DNA of 64,000 nt, from the sequence record OZ035785.1; one strand, written 5' to 3'. The DNA comes from Tequatrovirus BCH953P2. Below are positions 196 to 15,856 of the stretch, piece by piece. The translations under genes were made by a program, and so were the position numbers. The stretch's first letter is position 1, and every line of letters begins with the position of its first letter. Under the pieces are notes generated by a model. That model was not told the DNA's origin. It did no database searches and was given only the letters and a program-made list of their open reading frames with translations.

Positions 196-558
196 TTAAA
201 AGAATTTAAATTTTTTCTTTGACCTTTTATTAAATGCATCTTGCAGTTGCATTGTAATACATTTTTCTACATGAGGAGCTAACTCAGCTTTTCTTTCTTG
301 GTCAAGAACAGCAAAGTCCATTACAACCTTTCCATCAACCCAATCTAATTTTGTCACATACACAATGTGTGTAGAACCATCTTCTAGTTTAATGACAATC
401 TCCTGGATAACATTTTCCATAGCAGATTTAATTATCTTAAGAGACTCATTAAAAAGACGTTCTTTTCTTTCTTCTTCCCCCTCCGAAGAGGGGGATTCAT
501 CGATAATTTCTAGATCTAAATCTAAATCATCTTTATTCATTAAATTCTTCCATATCAC
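196..558 (-). CDS. 40: gene 40 protein (head assembly accessory), by synteny
   Basis: 120 aa ORF between uvsX and 41; acidic N-terminus; start may be the internal Met at 540. Confidence 0.5.
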   Translation of the reverse strand: MIWKNLMNKDDLDLDLEIIDESPSSEGEEERKERLFNESLKIIKSAMENVIQEIVIKLEDGSTHIVYVTKLDWVDGKVVMDFAVLDQERKAELAPHVEKCITMQLQDAFNKRSKKKFKFF

Positions 559-1714
559 TTAACTGTTCGAGGTCAGTTTCTAAATCAGCAGCTGATTTAC
601 TTTTACTTTCTGGGGATTTAAATTTTTCAACTTTTGAGTTAATCAATTCATCAACTTCCGCTTCAACAATTTCATTACTATCAATAGCACCTAACTGATA
701 AGCACGTTTAATAGCATCTCGGAATGGTTGATGCTTAAATAAAGGACCCCAGAATGTAGTGCAGTTGGTATCTTTTGCACGCCAAGATTTTTCTTCGCGA
801 ATCATCTCACCGGTTTCTTCATCAAGAAATTCACGGGCATACCAGCCATTTTTAGGTTTTACTACAAATCCTAATTCTAGTGCCATATCTAACAATCCAG
901 AATAAGGATCGATACCACCGTCAAATTTAACATCAATAAAGAATTTACTTTTTTCTTTAACGGTACGAGATTTTTCTACATTTAGAACAAATTGATACCC
1001 CTGAAGATCAGAACCATCTTTAATTTGACGTTTACCGATAATGAATACAGTATCAGCCGAATACATTACGCCTGTACCGCCTGTCATCACGGTTTTACTA
1101 AACATTTCAATTGTTTCAATTGTATGGTTAACCGCAACGCACGGAATATTTTTAATGCTAAAATAAGGAGTAACAATACGGAATAATGACTTCAGTGATT
1201 TAGCACGAGTCATATCTGCCACAGATTTTTCATTCAAGGCATCTTCCGTTTCTTTCTTAGAAGCCATATTACCGATTGAGTCGATGAATACAATAACCTT
1301 TTCACCACGCTCAATAGCTTCAAGCTGATTCACCATATCAATTTTCAGTTGTTCAACTGACTGGATTGGTGTATGAATTACTCGTTCCGGGTCAACTCCC
1401 ATAGATCGCAAATAAGCTGGAGTGATACCAAATTCGCTATCATAGAATAGACAAACCGCGTCAGGATATTTGTTCAAATATGCCGCAACCATAGTCAAAG
1501 ACATATTTGATTTAAAGTGTTTAGAAGGCCCTGCGAAAATAGTTAAACCAGACTGCATGCCGCCATCAATCGCACCAGAAATAGCAATATTAAGCATTGG
1601 GATTTTTGTACGGATTACATCCTTTTCATTAAAGAATTTAGATGTAGTCAGTTCAGCAGTCATTTTAGAAGTGGAAGCTTTAATCAAACGGGATTTTAAA
1701 TCTGCAATAGACAT
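533..1714 (-). CDS. uvsX: UvsX RecA-like recombinase
   Basis: 393 aa; MSxxDLKSRLIKASTSK N-terminus, RecA-fold ATPase core, acidic C-terminal tail. Confidence 0.95.
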   Translation of the reverse strand: MSIADLKSRLIKASTSKMTAELTTSKFFNEKDVIRTKIPMLNIAISGAIDGGMQSGLTIFAGPSKHFKSNMSLTMVAAYLNKYPDAVCLFYDSEFGITPAYLRSMGVDPERVIHTPIQSVEQLKIDMVNQLEAIERGEKVIVFIDSIGNMASKKETEDALNEKSVADMTRAKSLKSLFRIVTPYFSIKNIPCVAVNHTIETIEMFSKTVMTGGTGVMYSADTVFIIGKRQIKDGSDLQGYQFVLNVEKSRTVKEKSKFFIDVKFDGGIDPYSGLLDMALELGFVVKPKNGWYAREFLDEETGEMIREEKSWRAKDTNCTTFWGPLFKHQPFRDAIKRAYQLGAIDSNEIVEAEVDELINSKVEKFKSPESKSKSAADLETDLEQLSDMEEFNE

Positions 1715-1767
1715 TCATTTTTTCCATAGGCATCATTATATTTTCCTCACTGGTTAAAGATAGAGTA

Positions 1768-1793
1768 ATTATAACACAATAAATTTAGGCATT
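1768..1793 (-). promoter_or_regulatory. candidate MotA-dependent middle promoter upstream of uvsX
   Basis: Minus strand reads TGCCTAA (MotA-box-like), 11 nt spacer, TATAAT. Confidence 0.4.
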
Positions 1794-2634
1794 AATCAAC
1801 TGCTATTGGATGAATAGCATTAAACTTATGAAATGCTTCTGATTTTTCTTTACGCGAAACACACATGCGAAGAACCTTTAACGGCTCGTCTTCTTCACCC
1901 AACGATTTTCGTTTTTCAATATTAGAAGTTTTCCAACGAGCTTGCTCTGGAAACTCTCTATTGATTTGTTCAAGCGCTCTATTATGTTTAGAATTACTGC
2001 GAATTGAACTGCACCCGCCAGGAGCTTGTGCTTTTCCAGATACAACCAGATATTTGAACAAGGCCAAATGCGGATAACCTTGATTAATTAAATTGAGAAA
2101 TGCATACATATCTTCGCATAAATCAATTTTTCCATACCCAATTTGTTCTGTGGTAAGTTTTCCGAGGTCATACCATGTATTCGTGAATCCGTATGAATTT
2201 TCACGATAATTACCCCAAGATGAAGTAATTTTAAAAATTGGTAGACGAGCATGACCGTGATAATACCCGCAATCCATGGCATCTTCAACGTATTGAATCA
2301 ATTCATAGAACTGTTCACGAGTTAATTGATTAATTTTATCTACACATCGGCGATCATCTCTTTTTCGCATTGAACTCATACGAATAGTAGTATCATCGTC
2401 AATCATCCAGATTCGTTGACCTGCATACATATCAGTAATTGCTTTACGAGTACCGGCAATTCCATTTACATCATCAGGAATAGTTACAATTTTAGCTCTA
2501 GACCCATAGGCATCATAATAAGCTTTTTCTTCGTGTTCACGCACTACAATATGTGGTTCATAATCAGTCGGAAACATATCAAGGGCAGAAACTGCCCCTA
2601 CACGTTGATAGCTTGGAATTACGAATTGAATCAT
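1792..2634 (-). CDS. glycosyltransferase with DxD motif at the beta-gt locus (candidate beta-glucosyl-HMC-alpha-glucosyltransferase)
   Basis: 280 aa; IWMIDDD motif typical of GT-A enzymes; occupies the uvsX-to-42 position where T4 has 351 aa beta-gt; unrelated in sequence to T4 beta-gt. Confidence 0.5.
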   Translation of the reverse strand: MIQFVIPSYQRVGAVSALDMFPTDYEPHIVVREHEEKAYYDAYGSRAKIVTIPDDVNGIAGTRKAITDMYAGQRIWMIDDDTTIRMSSMRKRDDRRCVDKINQLTREQFYELIQYVEDAMDCGYYHGHARLPIFKITSSWGNYRENSYGFTNTWYDLGKLTTEQIGYGKIDLCEDMYAFLNLINQGYPHLALFKYLVVSGKAQAPGGCSSIRSNSKHNRALEQINREFPEQARWKTSNIEKRKSLGEEDEPLKVLRMCVSRKEKSEAFHKFNAIHPIAVD

Positions 2635-3271
2635 TTAAGTGCCTTACATTTGTCAAAATGGTATCTTGTCATATTTGGCCCACGTCCTTTTAGTCCGCAA
2701 TGCGGACATATTTTTTCTATCAAATTATGAGGTTTTCCTTTACGATTTTTAGACATCGTTTCTTTAATTATTTTAGCTTTTTCTGCGCCAAAAATTTCTT
2801 CATAAGTTTTACCAGAATTTTCCTTTGCTCGATTTATAATTCCATATGCCTGCTCATTTTTACCATACATTGGATTACCTTCGCCTTTCATTCTTTTAGA
2901 ATGATCAGGACGCTTGATTCCACGAAAGGCATTTCCGCACTTATATCTTTCTTCTGGAGATAGTTTTTACCGTACATTCCATTTAATTTGCCTGGAAAAC
3001 TTCCTCCCCATGCTTCATTCTTTAAATTATATGAATCCGGACAATTAGCAGCATCTAAACAAGTTAAAATAATTTCTTCAACCTGTCTAAACATTGGTCC
3101 TTCATATAATATTTCTTTATTAAAGGATTTTATTCCATATTTCTTTTTAGCATGTTGCCAAACTACACCCGAACCATCATAATTCGGGTTGTGACCATCA
3201 TGACTTCCTATATACCACTTTTTAGTTTTAGGATGTTTATACTTATAAACATGTGGCACATTTACTTCCAT
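2631..3271 (-). pseudogene. seg-like GIY-YIG homing endonuclease split by a frameshift
   Basis: N-terminal ORF (2888-3271) has VYKYKH...WYIGS GIY-YIG motifs then GKLNGMYGKN; the NUMOD3-like continuation (SPEERYK...GEGNPMYGK) lies in another frame (2631-2891); frames switch near an A5 run around 2962-2968. Confidence 0.6.
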
Positions 3272-4002
3272 TTTCCAGTATAATCCTTTTTAGCAATATG
3301 AGTCTCACCGGTGTTCCACCAATGGTCAACTAAATAAAACTGATTTTCGTACACATGAAGACTTCCAACGTTCCATATAATAGAACCTGCTTTATATTGC
3401 CGCGATGGGTCGCCTGCATTCAAATCAGATACTAATTTATCTAGTACGTATTTTTGCCAAGCATAATCATTACGATAGCCTGCCCAGCAATCATTGCTTC
3501 TCATGCTAACAACCGCATTGACTTTCTTATCACGAATCAGGTACTGTACTGTATTAGTACACATGAAATCTGACATACCATCTTTATTGTAGTCAAATTG
3601 CATGGATGGACGAGTATAAATCATGATACCACGTCGAGAATCAGGATTTTGACCAAGTTCAGCTAAACACATGTCATATTGAGCATAGTTATCTTCTGAC
3701 CAGATAGCCCAACCATAATTCGAGTTAATTTCGCCTTTAGAAGATGCTACCTGCTGCCAAATCTTTGGTGTTTCACCTGGAATATCTTTAACAAACAAGC
3801 TCTTAGATTTATACCATTCAAGTTCGCGCTGAATGTATTCATCATTAAGAGCGCCAAAAATAAACGGTTCATCTGCTACAAATGATGCGCCAATAATTTC
3901 AATAGTTTTAACACCGGTTTTATCAACTACGAAATCTTTTTCTTTTAATGCAAGCCCCAAATGAAGACGGATTTCTTCAACTGTCATAGAGTCACTAATC
4001 AT
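3262..4002 (-). CDS. 42: dCMP hydroxymethylase
   Basis: 246 aa thymidylate-synthase-fold protein at the conserved position downstream of the gt locus. Confidence 0.93.
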   Translation of the reverse strand: MISDSMTVEEIRLHLGLALKEKDFVVDKTGVKTIEIIGASFVADEPFIFGALNDEYIQRELEWYKSKSLFVKDIPGETPKIWQQVASSKGEINSNYGWAIWSEDNYAQYDMCLAELGQNPDSRRGIMIYTRPSMQFDYNKDGMSDFMCTNTVQYLIRDKKVNAVVSMRSNDCWAGYRNDYAWQKYVLDKLVSDLNAGDPSRQYKAGSIIWNVGSLHVYENQFYLVDHWWNTGETHIAKKDYTGKWK

Positions 4003-4009
4003 TTAAACC

Positions 4010-4159
4010 TCAATTGATACATTCATATTTAACTTGTAACAGTAATAAACCCCAACCTAAAATAATAGTTGGAATCATAAGAGGAACCGTTACACTATAG
4101 TATATACTTATTATAATCATCAAGATTAAAAGCAACACTGCTATAATTTTGCTTTTCAT
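4010..4159 (-). CDS. small hydrophobic protein
   Basis: 49 aa ORF MKSKIIAVLLLILMIIISIYY...; start overlaps imm stop (ATGA); not in ORF track (<60 aa). Confidence 0.4.
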   Translation of the reverse strand: MKSKIIAVLLLILMIIISIYYSVTVPLMIPTIILGWGLLLLQVKYECIN

Positions 4160-4407
4160 TCCTTCTCTCTGATGATAATTACCTGATTTGGTTGTGCAGA
4201 CTTTTTAGTTTCACCCGCAATTGACCAAATAAATGTAATAAACCAACCAATAATTGACCAGTTAAACAGTAAAGATGTGAAAAAGATTCCTACTGTCGAT
4301 TTTGACCCACGCATCAAGGCGATAAACCATGGAAGCATGTATATAATAATAGCCAACACACCTGAAACTAAAACCATAAAAATTGAACCTGCTACTAAAG
4401 TTTCCAT
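4156..4407 (-). CDS. imm: superinfection immunity membrane protein Imm
   Basis: 83 aa, two hydrophobic helices, position between 42 and 43. Confidence 0.8.
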   Translation of the reverse strand: METLVAGSIFMVLVSGVLAIIIYMLPWFIALMRGSKSTVGIFFTSLLFNWSIIGWFITFIWSIAGETKKSAQPNQVIIIREKE

Positions 4408-14640: not shown

Positions 14641-14654
14641 GGGCCGAAGCCCTT
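14641..14654 (-). other. C(UUCG)G tetraloop RNA hairpin
   Basis: GGGCCGAAGCCC overlapping the a-gt stop codon. Confidence 0.6.
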
Positions 14655-15856
14655 TATTTTGTAATAATGTCAAACTGTTCTTTAAAGCAGAAGCTTGAAT
14701 CTTGATGCTGATACAAAAATTCATATGCTTTTTCTCGCTCACGGTCATAAAGAGCTCGGTCAGATGACAGTTCTTTAATACGCTCGAATGTTGATTCCAT
14801 GTCATTTTCATCAAACCAAACGATACCGCTATCATGCGAGGTCAAAGGAGTATTATCAACACGGAATTTTAAATTTTCGCCAGTAGATTTCCAAAATACC
14901 GGAATTGTTCCACATGCACCAAGCTCGAGGTGAGTATATTCTAAAGAGCGCTGTAGATATTTTTTATCCAACTTACTCAACTGATAACCAAATCCAGATT
15001 TACTCATACGTTCAAGCATTTCGCTATTTACATAACGATCGAGAATTTGCGTTGGTAAATTAGGAGCAATTTTAATTTGGTCTACTTGATGAAGACGATA
15101 ATACTCGTATGGAATTCCTTTTTCTTTAATAGGAATGAACGCTGGAGAACGTTCCAGACCTTCCATAATAGTACTTAGTCCTGCAGGTTTAAGATGTTTT
15201 TCGTGAAAATCAAACATCTGATAAAAACCTTTCCATGTAGTCGTACGACCAATCCAACGGTTGATATTCATGTTAATTTCAGAAACATCTTTCCAGTAGG
15301 TTGATCGAACCTTCGCAATATCCATAGGAGGCTGAAAGTTGTATACGGTCGGTGCTTCTTCAATATCATCAAACAGAGAAACTGTTTCTGGATACCATTC
15401 TTTCATCAGAACTTTATTAAAATCGCCATTATCAGAATGGCTAAAAATAACATCAGCTCGACGAACAGTTTCTTCTAATCCCAAATTTCGACGCAAAGAA
15501 AGAGAAGAATGGTCATGTTGATAAACTACAACACGAACCGAAGGTTTAATGTTATCAATAATTTTTTTATAGTTATTAATAGTGTCTTCTTCAACTGAAG
15601 TAGCAGGAACTGAATTGATAATTAGAATATCACAATCATTTACCAGCTTAAGTGTTTTATCGTATTCTTTTGCCAATAAAACCGGAATTGAAAATGATTT
15701 ATAATCATGCGCGCAATTACGGGTAAATGATTTATCTTTAGCATAAACCAAAGTTACTTCATGACCATTTTTAATAAACCAATCACGCTGCTCAAGAGAA
15801 AATTTAGTTACACCACAACCTTCAAGACCTCGAGCCATAAAAATACATACTTTCAT
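14654..15856 (-). CDS. a-gt: DNA alpha-glucosyltransferase
   Basis: 400 aa; MKVCIFMARGLEGCGVTKF N-terminus and overall match to T4 alpha-gt. Confidence 0.95.
   Translation of the reverse strand: MKVCIFMARGLEGCGVTKFSLEQRDWFIKNGHEVTLVYAKDKSFTRNCAHDYKSFSIPVLLAKEYDKTLKLVNDCDILIINSVPATSVEEDTINNYKKIIDNIKPSVRVVVYQHDHSSLSLRRNLGLEETVRRADVIFSHSDNGDFNKVLMKEWYPETVSLFDDIEEAPTVYNFQPPMDIAKVRSTYWKDVSEINMNINRWIGRTTTWKGFYQMFDFHEKHLKPAGLSTIMEGLERSPAFIPIKEKGIPYEYYRLHQVDQIKIAPNLPTQILDRYVNSEMLERMSKSGFGYQLSKLDKKYLQRSLEYTHLELGACGTIPVFWKSTGENLKFRVDNTPLTSHDSGIVWFDENDMESTFERIKELSSDRALYDREREKAYEFLYQHQDSSFCFKEQFDIITK

Follow-up and report, generated by a model that had tools for sequence, protein, structure and literature searches.

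The uvsX–gene 42 interval

The window, a 64,000-nucleotide stretch of the ~168-kb genome of Tequatrovirus BCH953P2 (OZ035785.1), was analysed around the interval between uvsX and gene 42 and around its alpha-gt gene (Table 1). Its first 8 kb are collinear with many Tequatrovirus genomes at 98% identity. The ORF list gave a single intact, ATG-initiated ORF of 280 aa at 1792..2634, in the slot that holds the gene for beta-glucosyl-HMC-alpha-glucosyltransferase (ba-gt) in T2 and T6. In the T4 record the same interval is occupied by the 351-aa b-gt gene (1056 nt) together with segA. Megablast of the 843-bp window gene against GenBank gave 478 phage records in which the match spans 80% or more of the gene, and in 474 of these the identity reaches 90%. 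Codon differences were mostly synonymous, with 21 synonymous and 4 non-synonymous against T2 and 31 and 6, respectively, against T6. Together, this pattern of divergence and the carriage by 478 records indicated that the ORF is a real gene.

Table 1. Positions in the window of the genes and sequence features considered here
Feature	Position	Strand	Basis
ba-gt / ggt, beta-glucosyl-HMC-alpha-glucosyltransferase, 280 aa, TAGT, GT-A fold	1792..2634	minus	ORF, identity, PF20691, phrog_842, AlphaFold2, Foldseek
IWMIDDD, ba-gt residues 75-81	2392..2412	minus	codons ATC TGG ATG ATT GAC GAT GAT
ba-gt codon 11, CGT, Arg	2602..2604	minus	sequence and family alignment
uvsX, downstream flank of the glucosyltransferase slot	533..1714	minus	PF21134 and PF00154 (RecA)
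homing-endonuclease gene, frameshifted	2631..3271	minus	phrog_314; weak NUMOD3 match
endonuclease ORF, 127 aa	2888..3271	minus	ORF list
endonuclease ORF, 86 aa	2631..2891	minus	ORF list
gene 42, dCMP hydroxymethylase, hmC supply	3262..4002	minus	PF00303 (thymidylate-synthase family)
alpha-gt, DNA alpha-glucosyltransferase, 400 aa, intact	14654..15856	minus	PF11440, 786 bits

In T2 the stop codon of gene 42 directly overlaps the start of ba-gt, whereas in the window a homing-endonuclease gene of 640 bp is inserted exactly at this junction. The first 10 nt of this gene are also the last 10 of gene 42, and at its other end the stop codon runs into the ATG of ba-gt (ATGA), as the gene 42 stop does in T2. 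What precedes the ba-gt start codon in the window is endonuclease-gene sequence. The C-terminus of gp42 reads IAKKDYTGKWK in the window and IVKKDYNGEWK in T2. The endonuclease gene is intact in JK23, where it encodes 213 aa, and is split in the window by a 1-nt deletion that shortens an A6 run to A5 (2964..2968). It was found in 75 phage records, compared with about 478 carrying ba-gt. A 71-nt probe over the A-run matched exactly only in REP2 and REP3, showing that the window shares its A5 allele with these two phages; the remaining 73 records matched at 95-99%, and the ten listed at 98.6% have the value expected for an intact A6 as in JK23. The A5 allele could mean that the gene is a real pseudogene or that the run is prone to slippage, or it could be a sequencing error in the homopolymer. 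The homing endonuclease lies outside the glucosylation pathway.

A promoter and terminator scan of 1500..4300 returned sites no more numerous than in shuffled sequence. One terminator-like hairpin, at 2580..2600, falls within the coding part of ba-gt and was not considered functional.

Identity, fold and predicted active site

The protein encoded by the window gene was found to be 99% identical over 280 aa to the T2 enzyme in two independent records (MH751506 and AP018813), and 98% identical to the T6 beta-glucosyl-HMC-alpha-glucosyltransferase (MH550421 and AP018814). Three to six residues separate it from these enzymes, and none of them costs the window protein a family-invariant residue. 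Family searches gave the same assignment. PF20691 (TAGT, TET-associated glycosyltransferase) matched with 37.5 bits, above its gathering score (27.5), aligning residues 3-207 with positions 2-205 of the 205-position model, and phrog_842, named beta-glucosyl-HMC-alpha-glucosyltransferase, matched with 300 bits (E=3.5e-89). Homology to T4 beta-gt was absent: BLASTP between the two proteins returned only E=3.4, and PF09198, which matches T4 b-gt, did not match the window protein. A beta-gt gene elsewhere in the window was also considered and rejected, since tblastn with T4 beta-gt found no match in these 64 kb. Nothing in the sequence contradicts the identification of the gene as ba-gt.

We then considered the fold. 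A word-indexed search recovered 11 relatives, and a profile search extended these to 51, down to ~13% identity and nearly all already annotated as PF20691; an alignment of 47 TAGT sequences was used for both AlphaFold2 and conservation analysis. A single-sequence AlphaFold model was unusable (pLDDT 39.9) and was superseded by the run on this alignment, which gave a mean pLDDT of 93.9 and a pTM of 0.91. The model is a single Rossmann-like alpha/beta/alpha domain, like solved GT-A structures. Foldseek against the PDB returned 215 matches at E<=0.001, and the best 50 of these, with probability 1.00, E values of 7e-7 to 2e-5 and TM-scores of 0.43-0.53, were nearly all GT2 enzymes of GT-A type, together with two sugar nucleotidyltransferases. 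The GT2 matches included Staphylococcus aureus TarS and TarP, WrtF, Listeria monocytogenes RmlT, the Escherichia coli K4 chondroitin polymerase K4CP, and AvpGT. A predicted structure of the T6 TAGT has likewise been described as GT-A and sister to GT2 (PMC13216743).

Conservation analysis showed no variation among the 47 TAGT sequences at R11, R63, D79, D80 or D81, and little at R212 (45/47), R32 and T62 (43/47 each) and D175 (41/47). D79-D80-D81, a DxD-type motif, directly follows the model beta strand 74-78, and the end of the central beta strand is the normal position of the DxD motif in GT-A enzymes. A PDB search by sequence gave chance matches only (E>1), with no TAGT structure detectable in this way, so the roles of active-site residues were assigned from the model and from conservation. 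On this basis D79-D80-D81 would bind a divalent metal and the diphosphate of UDP-glucose, and R11, R63, R212 and D175 are further conserved candidates for the active site. GT2 enzymes are inverting. By analogy with these relatives and with the beta-linked product of the T2 and T6 enzymes, ba-gt is probably divalent-metal-dependent and inverting, a stereochemistry that would suit an enzyme making a beta-1,6 bond from UDP-alpha-glucose.

These results bear out a sequence-only reading of the same DNA in all but emphasis. That reading had described a 280-aa ORF with an IWMIDDD motif between uvsX and gene 42 where T4 has a 351-aa beta-gt, had taken its product for a GT-A enzyme unrelated to T4 beta-gt, and had noted a T4-like alpha-gt, an arrangement that it assigned to the T2/T6 type. 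The ORF list and the T4 record agreed with the first point, the AlphaFold2 model, the Foldseek matches, the invariant aspartates and the BLASTP and tblastn comparisons with T4 beta-gt with the second, and the alignments to T2 and T6 with the assignment. The window alpha-gt is 91% identical to that of T4, and its identity to the T2 and T6 proteins is 99% and 92%, respectively.

Predicted glucosylation pathway and extent of di-glucosylation

Gene 42, alpha-gt and ba-gt are all present in the window, and from the characterised orthologues, 98-99% identical to the window ba-gt, we infer the chemistry of the enzyme and the composition of the phage DNA. The product of gene 42, annotated as dCMP hydroxymethylase in JK23, T2, T6 and T4 too, would make hm-dCMP, leading to incorporation of hmC into phage DNA at replication. 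Alpha-gt would then attach an alpha-linked glucose to hmC in the DNA, creating the acceptor for ba-gt, which would use UDP-glucose to place a second glucose beta-1,6 on the first and so yield gentiobiosyl-hmC. The DNA is thus predicted to contain hmC, alpha-glucosyl-hmC and gentiobiosyl-hmC without beta-glucosyl-hmC, unlike that of T4. The alpha-gt gene contains homopolymer runs (A on the gene strand) of 6 at 14960..14965 and of 7 at 15562..15568; a homopolymer in T2 agt has been reported to be a contingency locus, turning glucosylation off and back on (preprint 10.1101/2025.10.21.683753).

Published work on homologous enzymes is consistent with this prediction. Gentiobiosyl-hmC made by such enzymes amounts to 5% in T2 and 72% in T6 (PMC6024577). 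In wild Tequatrovirus phages that carry an alpha-GT together with a TAGT, alpha-5-gent-mdC was detected by HPLC/MS and the beta-glucosyl form was not found, with gentiobiosyl-hmC at ~40% or ~66% in ten such phages (PMC13390438). The genetics of T6 point the same way: its gentiobiosyl-hmC DNA resists Brig1 in vitro and the BapA glucosidase, whereas deletion of ba-gt from T6 raises the sensitivity of the phage to Brig1 and opens its DNA to attack by both Brig1 and BapA, and such mutants behave in Brig1 sensitivity and BapA glucose-release assays as if only alpha-glucosylated (PMC11078745; bioRxiv 10.64898/2026.02.25.707755). The expectation of the sequence-only reading that gentiobiosyl-hmC gives this phage a modification pattern unlike that of T4 is thus supported, by analogy, from phages with the same gene pair and from the T6 mutants. 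Collectively, these data make it very likely that the gene is the T2/T6 ba-gt (ggt) orthologue of the TAGT family, acting with alpha-gt to give gentiobiosyl-hmC and no beta-glucosyl-hmC. Whether host defences such as McrBC, GmrSD, BrxU, the Brig1/Brig3 glycosylases and CRISPR-Cas can attack a T-even phage depends on how its hmC is glucosylated, and the alpha-gt plus ba-gt type of the window phage predicts gentiobiosyl-hmC DNA.

A TAGT-family enzyme might instead use another acceptor or donor than those of T2 and T6, glucosylating hmC directly or transferring another sugar. The family is functionally diverse, with many members that are solitary, without alpha- or beta-GT, and some that occur together with a beta-GT (PMC13216743), and identities within the 47-sequence alignment fall to 13-25%. 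However, few residues distinguish the window protein from the T2 and T6 enzymes, with the invariant ones retained, its partner alpha-gt and its locus are those of T2 and T6, and wild phages with an alpha-GT and a TAGT make gentiobiosyl-hmC (PMC13390438). We regard a different specificity as highly improbable.

The ba-gt might also be weakly active or inactive, as is apparently the case in T2, leaving the DNA almost wholly mono-alpha-glucosylated. The T2 gene is 99% identical to that of the window, and yet T2 DNA has only ~5% gentiobiosyl-hmC (PMC6024577). Lesions are moreover found in laboratory stocks, as seen in the two GenBank records of T6. In MH550421 (4138..4980) codon 10 is amber (CAG to TAG) and the gene is annotated from Met20, and in AP018814 (7135..7974) one Asp codon of the invariant DDD is lost in frame; either change might impair the enzyme. 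The occurrence of different lesions in two independent deposits suggests that laboratory T6 stocks differ in their glucosylation genes. Neither lesion is present in the window ba-gt. Its ORF is intact and keeps all the invariant residues, including the Arg11 that T2 has lost, its divergence is mainly synonymous, and the ten wild phages reach ~40% or ~66% gentiobiosyl-hmC (PMC13390438). Weak or absent activity of the window enzyme is therefore very unlikely, and we retain an active, gentiobiose-forming ba-gt as the preferred reading.

How far di-glucosylation proceeds is a separate matter. Mono- and di-glucosylated hmC stand at ~14:1 in T2 and 1:24 in T6, some 300-fold apart, and since the enzymes of these phages are 98-99% identical to each other, the ratio is not readable from sequence. 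One residue attracted our attention. Codon 11 of ba-gt is CAT (His) in all T2 records and CGT (Arg) in the window, and because T2 is the classical low-gentiobiosyl phage (~5%), R11H is a plausible hypomorphic change. When a 54-nt probe for the T2 allele was compared by megablast with GenBank (441 phage records), the only exact full-length matches were seven T2 records and SV76, a near-copy of T2 with a T2-sized genome. Pattern scans of IMG/VR found the His11 allele in no contigs and the Arg11 allele in two, numbers too small to use. It is possible, though we put it forward only tentatively, that R11H is a hypomorph of the laboratory lineage that explains the difference between T2 and T6, in which case the window phage, with Arg11, would be T6-like and its glucosylated hmC mostly di-glucosylated, even though over their whole length both its ba-gt and its alpha-gt resemble the T2 proteins most. 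If the proposal were true, a contrast between T2 and T6 that has been cited for a long time would come down to one residue.

Distribution, annotation and comparison with known systems

The carriers of ba-gt are nearly all Tequatrovirus-type phages of Escherichia, Shigella, Yersinia, Salmonella and Citrobacter. The TAGT slot is syntenic with T4 beta-gt, between uvsX and gene 42, and in a survey of 753 phage genomes the alpha-gt plus beta-gt pair of T4 occurred in six, the combination of alpha-GT and TAGT being common; an alpha-gt and ba-gt with an additional beta-gt is not a combination that the survey reports (PMC13216743). The sequence-only reading was right that a different enzyme occupies the beta-gt slot, and needs correcting in emphasis only, this being the common state. 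We considered an unusual replacement of beta-gt and rejected it, given that ba-gt in this slot is the majority state both in the 478 GenBank records and in the survey (PMC13216743); it is T4 that departs from the norm. The identification is right but already known, papers of 2018, 2024 and 2026 having stated every inference, and the classification of a phage as alpha-gt plus ba-gt is routine, is covered by published surveys and adds nothing new for biology.

Its practical value lies in correct annotation, because many GenBank records mislabel ba-gt. Records with sensible names give the gene as beta-glucosyl-HMC-alpha-glucosyltransferase, and it is often mislabelled as 'hypothetical protein', 'b-gt', 'beta glucosyl transferase' or 'putative beta-glucosyltransferase'. 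Gene 42 is labelled 'thymidylate synthase' in many of the records that carry ba-gt. Such labels could mislead predictions of DNA modification made from annotation alone.

Compared with known systems, the window enzyme resembles the GT2 enzymes TarS, TarP, K4CP and WrtF in its GT-A fold (Foldseek) and its DxD-type motif, but shares only 10-15% identity with them, and they act on teichoic acid or polysaccharide, not on DNA. Other PF20691 TAGTs, from phages and metagenomes, have R11, R63 and the DDD motif in common with it; the distant members differ in being only 13-35% identical and, in many cases, in occurring alone or alongside different modification genes. T4 b-gt (PF09198) shares the syntenic slot, the UDP-glucose donor and the formation of a beta linkage on phage DNA (PMC13216743), but has 351 aa instead of 280, a GT-B instead of a GT-A architecture and no sequence similarity, and its acceptor is bare hmC, whereas that of ba-gt is alpha-glucosyl-hmC (PMC13216743).

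The closest counterparts are the enzymes of T6 and T2. T6 ba-gt, the one genetically tested by deletion, agrees with the window in locus, family and Arg11, and differs (window residue first) by Y40N, V50I, D55G, I101V and R106H, with a partner alpha-gt that is clearly less similar than that of T2. T2 ba-gt has the same length, strand and slot as the window gene and the more similar alpha-gt, and differs, again with the window residue first, by R11H, V50I, I101V and P251S, the first of which places His at the family-invariant Arg11.
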